IMG/VR virus record: IMGVR_UViG_2537561830_000004
DNA from: a virus
Lineage: Duplodnaviria > Heunggongvirae > Uroviricota > Caudoviricetes
Length of the DNA stretch: 45,751 bases
Reading direction: 5' to 3' (one strand)
This document shows, piece by piece, positions 7,228 to 44,705 of the stretch. Every line of letters starts with the position of its first letter. The first letter of the stretch is position 1. A program made the position numbers and the translations under genes. The notes beneath the pieces were generated by a model that saw nothing but the letters and a program-made list of their open reading frames with translations, did not search any database and was not told the origin of the DNA.

Positions 7228-7458
7228 ATGAAAAAATCAGAAGTATTAGGCTATTTTGGCGGAGTTGTTAAAACAGCCGCAGCTCTTGGAACGTCAAAAA
7301 CCACAGTCAGCATGTGGGGGGAAGAGGTTCCGTGGAAATGGGCGTTGCTAATTCAGGCAGTCACTGCCGGGGCGCTCAAATATGAGTTACACATACCGAC
7401 GGTTGTCATTCCCGGTTCTGATCATAATCCGCCTTCTAACCAAGGGGGGGATTCATGA
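7228..7458 (+). CDS. cro: Cro-like HTH regulator (YdaS-like)
   Basis: GGAG RBS, ATG at 7228; 76 aa; HTH GGVVKTAAALGTSKTTVSMW; divergent from cI. Confidence 0.75.
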   Translation: MKKSEVLGYFGGVVKTAAALGTSKTTVSMWGEEVPWKWALLIQAVTAGALKYELHIPTVVIPGSDHNPPSNQGGDS

Positions 7459-7880
7459 AAATCAAGCATGAACACATCCGCATGGCGATGAATGCCTGGG
7501 CGCATCCGGACGGCGAAAAAGTACCGGCTGCGAAAATTACCAAAGCGTATTTCGAGCTGGGAATGACGTTCCCGGAACTGTATGACGACAGCCATCCGGA
7601 AGCCCTGGCTCGCAATACCCAGAAAATTTTCCGCTGGGTAGAGAAAGACACCCCTGATGCAGTTGAAAAAATTCAGGCGTTGTTACCAGCGATCGAAAAG
7701 GCAATGCCACCTTTGCTGGTGGCCAGAATGCGCAGCCACAGTTCAGCTTATTTTCGGGAGCTGGTGGAGACGCGGGAGCGACTGGTGAGAGACGCTGATG
7801 ATTTTGTCGCAGTGGCAATCGCCGGTTTCAATCAGATGAACCGTGGTGGCCCGGCAGGAAATGCTGTGGCAGTACATTGA
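7455..7880 (+). CDS. CII-analog regulator (YdaT-like, Rac/Qin-type immunity region)
   Basis: 141 aa starting MKIKHEHI, immediately after cro with start/stop overlap; family assignment from recalled similarity to E. coli YdaT. Confidence 0.6.
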   Translation: MKIKHEHIRMAMNAWAHPDGEKVPAAKITKAYFELGMTFPELYDDSHPEALARNTQKIFRWVEKDTPDAVEKIQALLPAIEKAMPPLLVARMRSHSSAYFRELVETRERLVRDADDFVAVAIAGFNQMNRGGPAGNAVAVH

Positions 7881-9778: not shown

Positions 9779-10050
9779 ATATCGACGCAACAATGACGAT
9801 TGGTACGGCCCTCAATACGGGGCTGGCGCTTCTTGGTTGGTGCTACATCATGTTCTGCTCATGGCGGTGGCTGTCACTGATGTTACTGAAAGAATGGAAT
9901 AAACGCTGTAAACAGACGCAGCGGCAGAAGGCAATGAATGCGTTTTTTGAGACCTTCGATATTGACAGTATAGAACCAGGAGAGCCAGCTCGCGTGATTA
10001 GCAGAGGTGACGTTGTAATTCTTGTATACCGGAGTGAAGAGAAAGCATAA
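9775..10050 (+). CDS. small hypothetical membrane protein
   Basis: 91 aa; hydrophobic segment LALLGWCYIMFCSWRWLSLMLL; translationally coupled to upstream gene. Confidence 0.4.
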   Translation: MNIDATMTIGTALNTGLALLGWCYIMFCSWRWLSLMLLKEWNKRCKQTQRQKAMNAFFETFDIDSIEPGEPARVISRGDVVILVYRSEEKA

Positions 10051-10164
10051 TCCAAATCTGAATAATTAAATCCAGCACTGTAAATAAAATTTAATCCTTA
10101 ACCGGAGGGATTTCTGCACCCTCAGAACATCAGGAGGCCGCCCGAAAGGGCGGTGGAGATAATA

Positions 10165-10401
10165 ATGGAAATAACTAAAGAACGATTATTGGAAATAGCA
10201 AATCTTAGTGAAAGGGCATTAAGTGATGGGAGGATTATTTCTCCTGATGCTTATGAATCAGTTACAAGTATAGAAATAATAACGATGGCCAGGATGCTTC
10301 TTGGTTGCCTCAAAAAAGAATATAAAAAAAAGGTGGATAGCAATGCTAATATATATGATATTTTGGACAGTTGGGGGGGCTTGGGCTGCAGCTGGAAATA
10401 G
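10165..10401 (+). CDS. small hypothetical protein (low GC)
   Basis: GGTGGAG RBS then ATG at 10165; overlaps 5' end of the next gene in another frame; may be spurious. Confidence 0.2.
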   Translation: MEITKERLLEIANLSERALSDGRIISPDAYESVTSIEIITMARMLLGCLKKEYKKKVDSNANIYDILDSWGGLGCSWK

Positions 10402-10690
10402 TTCTATCAACTGGCGGCAAGTGGCTGATAAATATAAAGATGTAGTACCTCATGGTAAGAAATTACGCCGTCAGTGTGGCAACGATGAAGGTCGTATGAT
10501 TGATACCTGCATGTTGAAGCTTAAACAATATAGAATAGATGACTATGAGTTAATTATCGCTCATTTTGTTATAGGTATATCTTTGCGTACAATAGCACGA
10601 AGGTACAAATGTTCAGATGGAACAATAAGAAAGAATATACAACTTACAATGGGAGTATTGTTAGGATTGTCTTTTTATGTGCAATTATAG
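10343..10690 (+). CDS. Q-family late antiterminator-like protein (phage 21 Q / QuuD-like), low GC
   Basis: about 115 aa from the ATG at 10343; WTVGGAWAAAG ... RRQCGNDEGRMIDTCML ... VIGISLRTIARRYKCSDGTIRKNIQ pattern matches recalled Q21/QuuD; ORF track gives 10301..10690. Confidence 0.5.
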   Translation: MLIYMIFWTVGGAWAAAGNSSINWRQVADKYKDVVPHGKKLRRQCGNDEGRMIDTCMLKLKQYRIDDYELIIAHFVIGISLRTIARRYKCSDGTIRKNIQLTMGVLLGLSFYVQL

Positions 10691-10695
10691 ATATA

Positions 10696-11175
10696 TCACA
10701 TGAGCCTTGTTATGTCTTTTAGACGCGACCAGGTAGTATAAAATTTTTTAAATGTAATAAGCAGGAAAAAAATTCCCACTTGGAGTAATAGTTGGGCATA
10801 TGTGTGCTCGTCGGCATCTTTTACTAGTGGGAATTTAAACTTTAGTGTATCAGGGAAAAATAATAAAATGATAAAAATAATACAAACTGATAGTAACCAT
10901 CCCATAGTGGAGTGCATTTCTTCGGTCAGTTTTTTCAAATAACCAGTTTTTCCTATATTTCTAATTAGCGTATTATCTCTAGCTGAAGCAATCAAGGTAA
11001 GCGAACCTAAAACAAAGCCAAATAATATCCCAGAAAATGTAGAAACGGCCGAAGCGATTGGCTGAATTTGTGCAAAATTTAGCTTTGCAGAAAGAGGCCA
11101 TGCGATGATACAAAAAACAGCAGAGGCTAAATTATAACCATAACTGTACAAAGTTATCAATTTCCCCTTTTTCAT
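10696..11175 (-). CDS. small inner-membrane protein with four predicted TM helices, RexB-like
   Basis: 159 aa; four hydrophobic helices; GGAG RBS; 15 bp downstream of the 304 aa gene; about 33-35% GC; STFSGILFGFVLGSLTLIASARDNTLIRNIGKTGYL resembles recalled lambda RexB. Confidence 0.55.
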   Translation of the reverse strand: MKKGKLITLYSYGYNLASAVFCIIAWPLSAKLNFAQIQPIASAVSTFSGILFGFVLGSLTLIASARDNTLIRNIGKTGYLKKLTEEMHSTMGWLLSVCIIFIILLFFPDTLKFKFPLVKDADEHTYAQLLLQVGIFFLLITFKKFYTTWSRLKDITRLM

Positions 11176-11190
11176 ACCATCGCTCCAAAA

Positions 11191-12105
11191 TTAATCAACT
11201 CTTTGATTGGCTACTCCAAAGTATGCCTTCAATTCATCATCTTTACTATCTTTTGCAAGAGTTAAGGCGCTCCAAATGCTGCCAACTAATGGATACCTAC
11301 CTCCAAGTTCAACATCTGTGTAGTAGACTAATTTGTCTGCTACAAGATCGATAGGATGCTGTACACCGGTCTCAATGTCTTGGGTTTCTAGTTTAAGTTT
11401 TTCAACCTCAAAAGTCTCTAGTGTTTCTTTAAAGGCTCTTTTTAGTTGAGAACCTAGATAGCGAGATTCAGGATCTTCAGAACGACTATCCCCACGTAAT
11501 GTAAGATTTACTTTGGCAGAATTAGTACCATTTAGAGTGGCTATCAATGCATTGTTGAAGTTATGTTCAACATCCTCATATAGTTGCACATTCTTTGGCC
11601 GAGCGATACCGATTTCTAGAGTTTTGATTCGAACTTCATTACGCATCAACCACTTTAAACTACTGGTCTGAATGATGGGATTAACAGTTGTATTTTGTGA
11701 ACTGTTGGAAAGATATTTACTTAATAGCAACCAGCCATAACAGAGTCTGTTTCGTTGAATTATTAAAACTGAGTCTTGGGTATAAAAATGAAAATAAGCT
11801 TTTTCTAATAAGTTTTCATTGATTTCAAGTTTAATTTCTCTTTCTTCACCTCCGGCTACAGCAACATGAGGGAGATTATTGGTTCTGTGTTTTCCTATAA
11901 CTCCCCTGAAACCATAGTCGGTTCTTTCCATGAAGCGCATTTCAACTAGTTTATTTCCTATTTTACGTACAGTTTTGTCTCGGCCTTCGCTGTATGACTC
12001 AAAAATTTTTGAAAAAACAGCTTCAGGTGAATTAACTCCTGCATTTGTATCAGTGCTTATAGTGTGACATTGATAAAAATCGAAGAAAAAGCGCTTGCTA
12101 GCCAT
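11191..12105 (-). CDS. soluble 304 aa protein, candidate RexA-like sensor partner
   Basis: 304 aa, no TM segments, no recognisable NTPase or nuclease motif; co-oriented with and immediately upstream of the 4-TM gene; low GC. Confidence 0.5.
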   Translation of the reverse strand: MASKRFFFDFYQCHTISTDTNAGVNSPEAVFSKIFESYSEGRDKTVRKIGNKLVEMRFMERTDYGFRGVIGKHRTNNLPHVAVAGGEEREIKLEINENLLEKAYFHFYTQDSVLIIQRNRLCYGWLLLSKYLSNSSQNTTVNPIIQTSSLKWLMRNEVRIKTLEIGIARPKNVQLYEDVEHNFNNALIATLNGTNSAKVNLTLRGDSRSEDPESRYLGSQLKRAFKETLETFEVEKLKLETQDIETGVQHPIDLVADKLVYYTDVELGGRYPLVGSIWSALTLAKDSKDDELKAYFGVANQRVD

Positions 12106-12496
12106 TGCAAAAATTTCCTGTAAAAAATAATTACATACTTAAGATACTACAAAGAATAATGCGTACGCAAAATTTTTTGTTGAGTAGAATATGTTCGCGG
12201 GGTATTTTTCGTTAAGATATAATTACCATGGTAACTTTTGCGTTGGTAATGCATTATGTGGTGGAGAAAAAGAGAGAGTCTTATCTTTAAATTATCGCCA
12301 GCCTATATGACTATATGAGTAGTATTTAGATGGGAAATTGTTGAGTTATTGAAAGGAACCATAACCTTTATGTAAAATTACTGCGGGTGCTTGAGGTTAT
12401 CTGTCTCAGGCATGCCACCAAAAGGCAGATAGAGAAAAGCCCCAGTTAACGTTACGCGTCCTGCAAGACGTTTAACATTAATCTGAGGCTCAATCT

Positions 12497-12709
12497 ATGA
12501 ACGGCAAATCTAGGTTAGCCTCTTACGTGCCGAAAGGCAAGGAGAAGCAGGCTATGAAGCAACAAAAGGCGATGTTAATCGCCCTGATCGTCATCTGTTT
12601 AACCGTCATAGTGACGGCACTGGTAACGAGGAAAGACCTCTGCGAGGTACGAATCCGAACCGGCCAGACGGAGGTCGCTGTCTTCACAGCTTACGAACCT
12701 GAGGAGTAA
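12497..12709 (+). CDS. mok-like upstream reading frame of hok-family toxin locus
   Basis: 70 codon ORF running in frame into the hok coding sequence. Confidence 0.4.
   Translation: MNGKSRLASYVPKGKEKQAMKQQKAMLIALIVICLTVIVTALVTRKDLCEVRIRTGQTEVAVFTAYEPEE
12554..12709 (+). CDS. hok: Hok/Gef family type I toxin (small membrane-depolarising peptide)
   Basis: 51 aa MKQQKAMLIALIVICLTVIVTALVTRKDLCEVRIRTGQTEVAVFTAYEPEE, close to recalled Hok; AGGAG RBS. Confidence 0.8.
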   Translation: MKQQKAMLIALIVICLTVIVTALVTRKDLCEVRIRTGQTEVAVFTAYEPEE

Positions 12710-12777
12710 GAGACCAGGTGAGGGAGAAATCCCTCGCCACCTCTGATGAGTCAGGCATCCTCAACGCACCCGCACTT

Positions 12778-12805
12778 AACCCGCTTCGGCGGGTTTTGTT
12801 TTTTC
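12778..12805 (+). terminator. intrinsic terminator of hok mRNA (UUCG tetraloop hairpin plus U-tract)
   Basis: ACCCGC-TTCG-GCGGGT followed by TTTGTTTTTT. Confidence 0.55.
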
Positions 12806-12876
12806 CTGGCATTCTGGTTTACAATTCGCACGCCAGCCTGAACAACTGGCACCTGCTGCGCCAGCAGAGACAACCG

Positions 12877-13149
12877 ATGGCGCACAAAACCAAATTTCAC
12901 AATTCTGATACCGCCCTTGCCATCCGGCATGGGCGGCGTTCACACGCATTTAAAACCGACTGGTACCAACACCCACCATGTACTGAAGAACAGGCCGAAT
13001 GGCTAATTCATAACTACCGCAGACGCGGATACGAGATTAAGAAAGCCCTCAGCCTCGATTATCGTCACTGGATAATCTATGTCAGGCTCCCTTATTCCGA
13101 ACGCCCACCGCGTCCGTCCCGCACATTCCAGCAACGCATCTGGAGGTAA
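12877..13149 (+). CDS. hypothetical nin-region protein
   Basis: about 90 aa from the ATG at 12877, downstream of the hok terminator; stop coupled to the next gene; ORF track gives 12718..13149. Confidence 0.35.
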   Translation: MAHKTKFHNSDTALAIRHGRRSHAFKTDWYQHPPCTEEQAEWLIHNYRRRGYEIKKALSLDYRHWIIYVRLPYSERPPRPSRTFQQRIWR

Positions 13150-14206: not shown

Positions 14207-14563
14207 ATGACTGAACGCATAGAATTTGTTTTGCCTTACCCGCCAACGGTGAACACTTACTGGCGACGTCGTGGCAGCACATATTTTGTATCAAAAGCCG
14301 GTGAGCGTTATCGCCGTGATGTGGCGCTTATTGTTCGCCAGCAGCGGCTGAAATTAAACCTGTCCGGAAGGCTGGCGATAAAGATTATTGCAGAGCCACC
14401 GGATAAACGTCGTCGTGACCTGGACAATATCCTGAAAGCACCACTGGATGCGCTGACGCATGCCGGACTTCTCATAGACGACGAGCAGTTTGATGAAATC
14501 AATATTGTGCGCGGTCAGCGCGTTCCTGGGGGGGCGGCTGGGCGTGAAGATTTACAAAATTGA
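14207..14563 (+). CDS. rusA: RusA-family Holliday junction resolvase
   Basis: 118 aa; YPPTVNTYW ... RRRDLDNILKAPLDALT matches recalled RusA; ATGA overlap with upstream gene. Confidence 0.85.
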   Translation: MTERIEFVLPYPPTVNTYWRRRGSTYFVSKAGERYRRDVALIVRQQRLKLNLSGRLAIKIIAEPPDKRRRDLDNILKAPLDALTHAGLLIDDEQFDEINIVRGQRVPGGAAGREDLQN

Positions 14564-14569
14564 GAGTGA

Positions 14570-15124
14570 GTGATCGTAAATATGATATACCCGGAAATTA
14601 CAGGCAAAAGCGGCGAGCATTTACGTCTAAAAACGCTGGAAGCCGTCTGGATCCAGGGGAAATTACGGATGTGGGGGCGTTGGTCGTATATAGGTGGTGG
14701 CAAACCAGGAAATATGTTCAATCAGTTGCTGGCATCCAAAAAACTGACAAAAACCGCAATCAATGAAGCCCTGCGTAGAATCAGGGAGTCAGGGATTGAT
14801 AAACCAGAGCTGGAAGCATTCTTGCGAGAGATGATCGCTGGCAGACAGAAGAGCTGGTTGTCTCACTGTACTGATGCAGAGGCGTTACGCATTGATGGGG
14901 TGATAAGTAAAGCGCTTGCACGTTATCCTGGATTGATTGATATCCTGCGGCAAAGGTACGAAGGGCGGGGGATGAGTAAACGCAAAATGGCTGAATTGTT
15001 GAATGAGGTTCACCCTGAGTGGTGCTATGCAACATGCCGCAATCGTATAGATATGTGGCTGAGAATAGCTGAGTTTATTCTGTATCCACTGATGCGAGAT
15101 GCATTTTCTTTTACTGACGCTTAG
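14570..15124 (+). CDS. Q-family late antiterminator-like protein (canonical position upstream of late region)
   Basis: 184 aa; MWGRWS and CTDAEALRIDG ... RIDMWLRIAEFIL share pattern with the 10343..10690 protein; followed by promoter-like sequence and a terminator. Confidence 0.5.
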   Translation: MIVNMIYPEITGKSGEHLRLKTLEAVWIQGKLRMWGRWSYIGGGKPGNMFNQLLASKKLTKTAINEALRRIRESGIDKPELEAFLREMIAGRQKSWLSHCTDAEALRIDGVISKALARYPGLIDILRQRYEGRGMSKRKMAELLNEVHPEWCYATCRNRIDMWLRIAEFILYPLMRDAFSFTDA

Positions 15125-16883: not shown

Positions 16884-16959
16884 GGCCCTTTAGCTCAGTG
16901 GTGAGAGCGAGCGACTCATAATCGCCAGGTCGCTGGTTCAAATCCAGCAAGGGCCACCA
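16884..16959 (+). tRNA. ileZ: tRNA-Ile2 (anticodon CAT), ileX/ileZ-like
   Basis: cloverleaf: acceptor GGCCCTT/AAGGGCC, loop CTCATAA, T-loop GGTTCAAATCC, 3' CCA; near-identical to recalled E. coli ileX. Confidence 0.85.
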
Positions 16960-16966
16960 TCACATA

Positions 16967-17043
16967 CCGCCATTAGCTCATCAGGATAGAGCGCCAGCCT
17001 TCGAAGCTGGTTGCGCGGGGTTCGAGTCCTCGATGGCGGTCCA
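16967..17043 (+). tRNA. tRNA-Arg (anticodon TCG)
   Basis: acceptor CCGCCAT/ATGGCGG, anticodon loop CTTCGAA, T-loop GGTTCGAGTCC, CCA encoded. Confidence 0.8.
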
Positions 17044-17056
17044 TTATCTGTACCCT

Positions 17057-17133
17057 GCGTTGTTAGCTCAGCCGGACAGAGCAATTGCCTTCTAAGCAAT
17101 CGGTCACTGGTTCGAATCCAGTACAACGCGCCA
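17057..17133 (+). tRNA. tRNA-Arg (anticodon TCT), reads AGA/AGG
   Basis: acceptor GCGTTGT/ACAACGC, anticodon loop CTTCTAA, T-loop GGTTCGAATCC, CCA encoded. Confidence 0.85.
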
Positions 17134-44121: not shown

Positions 44122-44705
44122 TGGCATTCAGAATGAGTGAACAAGCACGGACCATAAAAATTTATAATCTGCTGGCCGGAACTAATGAATTTATTGGTGA
44201 AGGTGACGCATATATTCCGCCTCATACAGGTCTGCCAGCAAACAGTACCGATATTGCACCACCAGATATTCCTGCTGGCTTTGTGGCTGTTTTCAACAGT
44301 GATGAGGCATCGTGGCATCTCGTTGAAGACCATCGGGGTAAAACGGTTTATGACGTAGCTTCCGGCGACGCGTTATTTATTTCTGAACTCGGCTTATTAC
44401 CGGAAAATGTTACCTGGTTATCGCCGGAAGGGGAGTTTCAGAAGTGGAACGGCACAGCCTGGGTGAAGGATACGGAAGCAGAAAAACTGTTCCGGATCCG
44501 GGAGGCGGAAGAAACAAAAAACAACCTGATGCAGGTAGCCAGTGAGCATATTGCGCCGCTTCAGGATGCTGCAGATCTGGAAATTGCAACGGAGGAAGAA
44601 ACCTCATTGCTGGAAGCCTGGAAAAAGTATCGGGTGTTGCTGAACCGTGTTGATACATCAACTGCACCTGATATTGAGTGGCCTACGAACCCTGTCAGGG
44701 AGTAA
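44121..44705 (+). CDS. tfa: tail fibre assembly protein Tfa
   Basis: 194 aa; ATGGCATTC start overlapping stf stop; conserved C-terminal region repeated again at 45592-45751. Confidence 0.8.

Follow-up and report, generated by a model that had tools for sequence, protein, structure and literature searches.

The stretch of DNA analysed here, a window of 45,751 nucleotides from a virus of the class Caudoviricetes (IMG/VR record IMGVR_UViG_2537561830_000004), raised the question of whether a short reading frame for a Hok/Gef-type protein belongs to a working hok/mok/sok type I toxin-antitoxin module or is a decayed copy, and which role such a module might play in a prophage. The region 12349-12805 was found to contain a complete hok/mok/sok module, and we are highly confident that it represents an intact member of the hokD/hokW subfamily in a lambdoid (Rac/Qin-like) prophage. 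The observations made in this analysis comprise the sequence membership, the intact elements, the RNA structure with its covariation and the identity to the validated sokW promoter. Membership in the hokD/hokW subfamily is evident from near-identical DNA and protein sequences and from the residence in a lambdoid prophage, whose gene order is apparent in the window from repressor, DUF968, RusA, Q-like, lysis and tail genes. The module as such is already known, since it is annotated as hokW/mokW/sokW in the Stx2 phage 933W and as hokD in RefSeq, and the copy of 933W and Sakai prophage 5 (Sp5) has been characterised experimentally. A prophage of Escherichia coli NCCP 13717 matches the window with 100% identity, and its copy of the gene was called hokD by the Prokaryotic Genome Annotation Pipeline (PGAP).

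The limits of the module were deduced from a BLAST comparison with 53 related loci, in which homology starts at about position 12383 and stops at about 12771-12805, so that the conserved block corresponds to the region from the transcription start to the fbi element and terminator. The initial annotation had let the locus begin at 12440, which is too far downstream in view of a promoter at 12349-12378 and a conserved 5' end of the messenger RNA (mRNA) at 12385, and which cuts off the tac element and the first hairpin of the leader. Its placing of the locus in the nin region was borne out, as the module lies between the replication-side genes and the DUF968, RusA and Q-like genes, in the equivalent of this region. 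The elements of the module are the following, where MFE denotes the minimum free energy structure and UTR the untranslated region.

12349-12378, plus strand: promoter of the hok/mok mRNA, with -35 TTGAAA, an 18-bp spacer and -10 TAAAAT; 10 of 12 positions match
12385-12803, plus strand: full-length hok mRNA of about 419 nt, the 5' end placed by homology and the 3' end by the terminator
12385-12396, plus strand: tac element GGGUGCUUGAGG, 5' partner of the long-range pairing (MFE and centroid structures)
12439-12489, plus strand: leader hairpin representing the Sok target region, complement of the Sok terminator hairpin (RNAalifold helix 4)
12505 to 12435, minus strand: predicted Sok antisense RNA of 71 nt, coordinates transferred from sokW of 933W
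12512-12540, minus strand: sok promoter, with -35 TTGCCT (12540-12535), a 17-bp spacer and -10 TAACCT (12517-12512), located by identity to 933W
12497-12709, plus strand: mok reading frame of 70 codons, in frame with hok and ending at the hok stop codon (list of open reading frames)
12554-12709, plus strand: hok toxin gene, 51 amino acids (Pfam HOK_GEF), with its own AAGGAG at 12539-12544
12552-12562, plus strand: hok start region, pairing with 12678-12689 inside the coding region (RNAalifold helix 7)
12692-12695, plus strand: TACG motif in the Tyr47 codon, found in 29 of 29 loci
12717-12738, plus strand: conserved stem-loop of the 3' UTR, GGUGAGGGA-GAAA-UCCCUCGCC (MFE and centroid structures, RNAalifold helix 14)
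12759-12771, plus strand: fbi element CCUCAA-C-GCACCC with a bulged C at 12765, 3' partner of tac (MFE and centroid structures)
12778-12805, plus strand: intrinsic terminator with UUCG tetraloop and T tract (terminator scan)

The 51 codons of hok specify the product MKQQKAMLIALIVICLTVIVTALVTRKDLCEVRIRTGQTEVAVFTAYEPEE, exactly the sequence that had been quoted as a Hok/Gef toxin from inspection by eye. The Pfam profile HOK_GEF (PF01848) matched residues 6-47 over all 42 profile positions with 82.9 bits (E=1.2e-23, cut-off 22), and a match to PHROG 251, 'MokW-like host killing', was obtained with E=2.8e-33. These matches are not due to chance, and through them the protein shows the features of the family, i.e. 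a Hok/Gef peptide of about 50 amino acids with an N-terminal transmembrane helix and a conserved cysteine. The RefSeq accession of the protein, WP_000813254.1, is the same as that of HokD (RelF) of E. coli K-12. Upstream of hok, the postulated in-frame mok-like extension was recovered as the 70-codon reading frame starting with the ATG at 12497, which is preceded by the Shine-Dalgarno sequence GAGG at 12485-12488; as in other members of the family, this frame with its own ribosome binding site runs from the leader into and over hok, by which the translation of the two frames is predicted to be coupled. Both the mok ATG and the GAGG motif are kept in 29 of 29 aligned loci. The frame relative to hok varies among these loci, being in phase in 19, as in the window, and shifted to +1 in six, where it reads through most of hok, while the remaining four loci contain a short mok of 19 codons that stops at the hok start. 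A constant start with a variable frame fits translational coupling and not a function of the Mok protein, and across the loci translation into the hok start region is the conserved trait.

The TACG motif in the Tyr47 codon deserves mention, since the mRNA of K-12 hokD is edited by TadA (adenosine to inosine) at the same tyrosine codon, which converts tyrosine to cysteine at a level of about 6% (PMC5630033, PMC12214031). Because the coding sequence in the window is nearly the same as that of K-12 hokD, this codon probably represents a TadA editing site in the window copy as well, with the same change of tyrosine to cysteine.

The promoter at 12349-12378 is the sole sigma-70-like site detected by a generic promoter scan of the region 12250-12900, and it places the transcription start at about position 12385. 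A -10 element TAnAAT occurs at equal distance upstream of the sequence GGGTGC in the 29-locus alignment. The resulting leader upstream of hok comprises 169 nt, in agreement with the structured leader of about 170 nt that characterises the family, and the Rfam family RF01794 matched the plus strand at 12385-12559 over its full length (1-157) with 108.7 bits against a gathering score of 59 (E=5e-25); this family is named 'sok', yet its model was built on the strand of the hok leader. At the other end of the transcript, the terminator consists of the stem AACCCGC, the loop TTCG and the complementary GCGGGTT at 12778-12795 and precedes TTGTTTTTTC. As it begins 68 nt past the stop codon, the UUCG-tetraloop terminator expected about 70 nt downstream of hok is real.

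Folding of the 417-nt RNA 12385-12801 gave a structure of -163.2 kcal/mol with a z-score of -7.2, in which the tac and fbi elements form 12 base pairs in both the MFE and the centroid structure. The long-range pairing of the tac/fbi type, for which the initial annotation had proposed a folding test, was thus recovered as a 12-bp closure of the 5' and 3' ends, and compensatory changes of this helix were present in relatives. The 3' side of the leader hairpin carries the mok Shine-Dalgarno sequence, and in the modelled structure the helix 12552-12562/12678-12689 sequesters the hok start. Two Rfam matches within the 3' UTR were rejected as they remained below threshold and rest mainly on the terminator hairpin, namely the Salmonella prophage small RNA isrK (12718-12799, plus strand), which scored 24 bits at a gathering score of 50, and rsmX with 20 bits; the isrK match probably reflects just two hairpins plus the terminator.

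The predicted structure was evaluated by means of a MAFFT alignment of 29 full loci that represent at least ten genera, among them Escherichia, Shigella, Kluyvera, Pseudocitrobacter, Citrobacter, Photorhabdus, Pantoea, Erwinia and Kalamiella. RNAalifold recovered the tac-fbi helix, the leader hairpin, the hok-start helix and the 3'-UTR stem-loop from this alignment. Within the consensus structure of 67 pairs, standard pairs make up 96.8% of the cells, and two-sided changes occur in 18 pairs; in 500 shuffles these values of pairing and covariation were never attained, and sliding the partners by one to three columns lowered the pairing to 38-48%. The leader hairpin showed changes on both sides in four of its nine pairs (including AU to GC in eight sequences and GC to AU in ten), the hok-start helix in three of ten pairs (CG to UA in ten sequences, AU to GC in nine and three) and the 3'-UTR stem-loop in four of eight pairs. 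One pair of the tac-fbi helix is U:A in 18 sequences, C:G in seven and U:G in two. The alignment counts cover only the six inner tac-fbi pairs, as MAFFT sets the fbi element of Photorhabdus and Pantoea one column off because these clades do not possess the bulged C. Due to this shift of register, the tac-fbi duplex was also computed sequence by sequence, and in 27 of 28 loci it comprises 10-13 bp and is stronger than the duplexes formed with all other windows of the mRNA. The compensatory changes include G12:C to A:U in Kluyvera and Photorhabdus and U4:A to C:G in Photorhabdus and Pantoea. The single exception is a visibly decayed copy from Shigella flexneri SFBU0723 (L047), in which insertions and deletions in the region of the reading frames are accompanied by the loss of tac-fbi pairing. 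A second decayed copy, from E. coli ECMA0423 (L005), has lost the tac motif. The two copies are useful as negative controls for a non-functional hok.

The antisense partner was located on the minus strand by transfer of the coordinates of sokW from phage 933W (2937-3007 in locus L001, where the mokW ATG at 2999 corresponds to window position 12497). The predicted Sok RNA folds into a free 5' tail of 9 nt, a long hairpin and a UUUU tail (-30.5 kcal/mol, z-score of -5.4). The sok promoter lies within the window segment 12506-12553, over which window and 933W are identical, and the published mutagenesis primer YO-421 swaps exactly the heptamer AGGTTAG, the complement of the TAACCT -10 element (PMC8621323). 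The arrangement TTGnnn-17/18-TAnnnT is kept in 24 of 29 relatives. Taken together, the identity of the promoter, the fold and the experiments on Sp5 suggest that a Sok-type antisense unit, directed against the leader across the mok start as in the whole family, is present in the window. The initial annotation had expected a Sok-like RNA on the minus strand around 12450-12560, and had proposed to search there for a promoter and terminator; the predicted unit is present, with a promoter identical to the validated one and a long hairpin with U tail, while its position had to be corrected to 12435-12505 with the promoter extending to 12540. Within the otherwise highly conserved leader, variability is greatest in the stretch that encodes the Sok 5' tail (alignment columns 131-155, about 12491-12512 in the window), which fits a role of this tail as the end that determines specificity.

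The closest characterised relative of the module is hokW-mokW-sokW of the Stx2 phage 933W and Sakai prophage 5 (AF125520, Plunkett annotation), with 90.6% DNA identity over 414 nt. The Hok proteins share 47 of 51 residues (92%), the in-frame mok extension consists of the same 19 codons, the sok promoter and the hok Shine-Dalgarno region are identical, and the tac and fbi sequences are the same. The two loci differ in the 5' tail of Sok, its recognition end, which makes cross-neutralisation with sokW doubtful, and in the end of Hok, which reads FTAYEPEE in the window and FVDYESEK in HokW. They also diverge in the upstream promoter region and throughout the part past fbi, the window having the UUCG terminator right after fbi, and the locus is situated in the nin-equivalent region in the window whereas it is found near attR in 933W. 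Experiments on the Sp5 copy by Takada et al. (2021) revealed that HokW is toxic and located in the inner membrane, that sokW neutralises it, that a mutation of the sokW -10 element abolishes the protection and that a promoter-less construct is toxic; both the sokW and hokW RNAs were detected by Northern blot (PMC8621323). After addition of mitomycin C the sokW RNA vanished and HokW appeared in a RecA-dependent manner about 1 h before endolysin, and growth arrest occurred about 40 min earlier than in the hokW-sokW deletion, along with an approximately twofold higher phage yield (PMC8621323).

The hokD (relF) gene of the Qin prophage of K-12 encodes an identical Hok protein, shows 97.4% DNA identity over the 3' 264 nt and is likewise located in a lambdoid prophage, just upstream of a DUF968 gene and a Q-type antiterminator gene. 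In contrast to the window copy, K-12 hokD aligns only from query position 201 onwards, with relBE sitting in place of the missing part, and is devoid of the first 200 nt or so, including the promoter, tac, the Sok region and the mok start. From this sequence comparison, the window copy appears to be the complete and ancestral form of the module, and K-12 hokD its 5'-truncated remnant.

The plasmid-borne relatives are the R1 hok/sok (parB) locus and its counterparts on IncF plasmids. The locus of an IncFII plasmid was used for comparison, its Hok being identical to what we take to be the R1 Hok sequence; it has a leader of 168 nt, a sok promoter TTGCGC-17-TATCCT, the tac element GGCGCTTGAGG and an in-frame mok, so that an out-of-frame mok was dropped as a difference of the R1 type. 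The architecture of the window copy and of the R1-type loci agrees in every element. In both, the leader comprises 168-169 nt, the tac element has the form GG(C/G)(G/U)GCUUGAGG, mok begins 57 nt before hok and the antisense promoter reads TTGCnn-17-TAnCCT; fbi and a terminator lie past the stop codon, and Pfam HOK_GEF as well as Rfam RF01794 are matched. The loci differ in that DNA similarity is recognisable only in a block of about 47 nt comprising the sok promoter and the mok start (query positions 133-179), and that the R1 locus resides on a plasmid and has been proven to cause post-segregational killing. HokW and R1 Hok share only 44% protein identity (PMC8621323).

The subtype is widespread, with matches in 4732 of 5426 complete E. 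coli genomes, 3894 of which contain a match covering at least 80% of the query. In genomes with matches, the median number of places is two and the maximum ten, and matches were also found in 78 phage records and on some plasmids. Near-identical copies of the E. coli type were additionally noted in Acinetobacter idrijaensis (L017, a contig of 275 bp), in Xanthomonas pisi (L022, a contig of 431 bp) and in Actinobacillus phage vB_Apl-pPE4 (H5); these most likely represent contamination or mis-assignment in public records.

By analogy with the paradigms of R1 and hokW, proposals can be made for the expression of the module, its 3' processing, its toxicity in the host and its physiological role. 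The stable mRNA of about 419 nt would be made constitutively and would be translationally silent, due to the pairing of tac (12385-12396) with fbi (12759-12771) and to local helices burying the ribosome binding sites of mok and hok. Slow trimming of the 3' end would take off fbi, and the refolded mRNA would allow the translation of mok and, coupled to it, that of hok. The unstable 71-nt Sok RNA would then pair with the leader across the mok start and thereby block mok, and hence hok, marking the duplex for cleavage by RNase III. Once sok transcription stops, Sok would decay first and Hok would be made, enter the inner membrane, collapse the membrane potential and stop growth or kill the cell. 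The toxicity of Hok and its neutralisation by Sok in the window copy would thus correspond to those of the 92%-identical HokW and of sokW. By the same analogy, the role of the module in the prophage is most likely the release of the toxin on induction, resulting in faster growth arrest and lysis and a higher phage yield, as deduced from hokW-sokW of Sp5, which provides the only direct data on a prophage copy.

Several points weigh against the interpretation as an intact module with this role. The locus is represented here by its sequence, and the ends of Sok are transferred by homology and not mapped. The generic promoter scan of 12250-12900 missed the sok promoter, because its -10 element TAACCT matches the consensus in three of six positions, and the promoter was located by homology and the published primer. 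The fold of the 3'-truncated mRNA (12385-12758) contained an alternative 5'-3' pairing in the MFE structure, and the textbook rearrangement of the tac hairpin was not produced by folding this segment alone, so that the activation step is adopted by analogy. About six of the first nine nucleotides of the Sok tail differ from those of sokW, and since the C-terminus of Hok also differs at four residues, the quantitative behaviour of the two modules may not be the same. Furthermore, the copy for which the role was demonstrated belongs to another phage and occupies another site, and the chromosomal hokA, hokB and hokC genes did not mediate post-segregational killing in older work quoted in a large recent survey (bioRxiv 10.1101/2025.08.07.668861).

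Among the alternatives to toxin release on induction, addiction as the main role appears doubtful. Loss of the prophage would remove Sok while the stable hok mRNA stays, and the resulting death of the cell would stabilise the prophage. Post-segregational killing is the established classical function of plasmid hok/sok loci, the R1-type plasmid locus has the same RNA architecture, and an annotation note in 933W reads 'prophage maintenance'; prophages show an about four-fold enrichment in hok genes (bioRxiv 10.1101/2025.08.07.668861). The negative result for hokA, hokB and hokC speaks against this role, as does the deletion of hokW-sokW, which was without effect on the growth of the Sp5 lysogen, with no phenotype of prophage loss being reported (PMC8621323). 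In addition, killing after excision also kills the cell that produces the phage, which makes the benefit of addiction questionable.

A second alternative, abortive infection or the exclusion of lytic phages, involves the genes next to the module, which face away from hok:

11191-12105, minus strand: gene of a DUF6731 protein, the only assignment given by Pfam
10696-11175, minus strand: gene of a hydrophobic protein of 159 amino acids, separated from the DUF6731 gene by a gap of 15 nt (list of open reading frames)

The DUF6731 protein has a RexA fold, a relationship seen by fold comparison only, and a crude hydropathy scan of the 159-amino acid protein revealed two strong hydrophobic segments; the downstream partners of DUF6731 relatives in Endozoicomonas and Vibrio comprise 152 and 163 amino acids. 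The designation as a RexAB-like pair in the initial annotation is therefore reasonable at the level of the fold and did not hold at that of sequence membership in the RexA and RexB families: PADLOC gave no RexA match, nor any other for the DUF6731 protein, and only a marginal RexB match (E=0.0014, 16.9 bits), an hhalign comparison of the DUF6731 protein with RexA of phage lambda yielded a probability of 0.1, and a BLASTP comparison with lambda RexB an E-value of 6.7. A PDB sequence search with the DUF6731 protein gave no meaningful match, and a literature search for DUF6731 returned nothing. The pair is part of an island of low GC content (10050-12350, 32-39% GC versus 50-55% in the flanks), which also contains a truncated reading frame for a Q-like antiterminator at 10301-10690 (PHROG 79) and looks like a moron cassette inserted directly upstream of the hok module.

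An exclusion role would imply that an infecting lytic phage halts host transcription, so that Sok is lost and the cell is killed by Hok ahead of the maturation of the invader; the module might act together with the RexAB-type pair as a small defence island, much like the toxin/abortive-infection cluster put forward in the initial annotation. We consider it unlikely that this is the main role. R1 hok/sok on a high-copy plasmid decreased the plating of T4 by 42% and plaque size by about 85% (quoted in PMC8621323), and the neighbouring genes in the low-GC island encode a RexA-fold protein and a putative membrane-protein partner; the same pair occurs in a defence-island-like context in Endozoicomonas, and in Pseudomonas putida a remote RexAB-type pair has been proven to act in defence. 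However, no match for Hok was obtained with PADLOC, and the closest characterised copy helped its resident phage and did not block others. The survey saw no enrichment of hok beside defence systems (bioRxiv 10.1101/2025.08.07.668861), and the neighbourhoods of hok are varied, including sites near attR in 933W and beside relBE in K-12 as well as plasmids, so that the adjacency to the RexAB-type pair looks incidental. Both addiction and the exclusion of lytic phages are compatible with toxin release on induction as secondary roles.

A more far-reaching proposal, which we regard as rather improbable, starts from the location of hok/sok in the nin-equivalent region, co-oriented with early rightward transcription. 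Antiterminated read-through after induction would meet the sok promoter head-on and silence it, and, together with the back-to-back RexAB-type pair, the region of about 2.7 kb at 10050-12805 would constitute a two-system island for membrane-depolarising suicide and lysis. If this were true, the read-through would supply the link between induction and the loss of Sok that was reported for hokW-sokW.

That the gene is a decayed and passively carried remnant like K-12 hokD (relF), an outcome of sequence comparison that the initial annotation had allowed for, is very unlikely despite the PGAP name hokD, the decayed relatives L005 and L047 and the view that K-12 hokD and most K-12 hok loci are inactivated (PMC12214031, PMC5630033), because all elements are intact: the window retains what K-12 hokD has lost, namely promoter, tac, Sok region and mok start, the reading frames are uninterrupted, the sok promoter is identical to the validated one and the tac-fbi pairing is preserved.

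Further features were noted elsewhere in the prophage. Near its right end, the small RNA family IS009 (Rfam RF02111) matched over its full length at 44464-44662 on the plus strand, with 225 bits against a gathering score of 117. Three transfer RNA genes are located at 16884-17130 on the plus strand, between a DNA methyltransferase gene and the lysis genes, and were assigned to Ile, Arg and Arg by PGAP on the identical genome. In the PGAP annotation of the 100%-identical RefSeq genome, the RusA gene (14207-14573, plus strand) and a Cro/CI-type gene (about 7228-7471) are frameshifted, so that the prophage, judged from these gene annotations, may be partly defective.

Beyond correct annotation the locus itself matters little, as it belongs to one of the best-studied RNA-controlled toxin systems and to a subtype that is present in most E. 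coli genomes. The more interesting by-product of the analysis is the DUF6731 pair, consisting of a RexA-fold protein and a putative membrane partner, which is a candidate for a RexAB-type defence system. For the hok family, the 29-locus alignment provides clean cross-genus covariation support for the classical tac-fbi model, and the variable 5' tail of Sok suggests that co-resident copies are insulated from each other. Since the name hokD assigned by PGAP masks the retained RNA control elements, the window copy is to be treated as potentially active.

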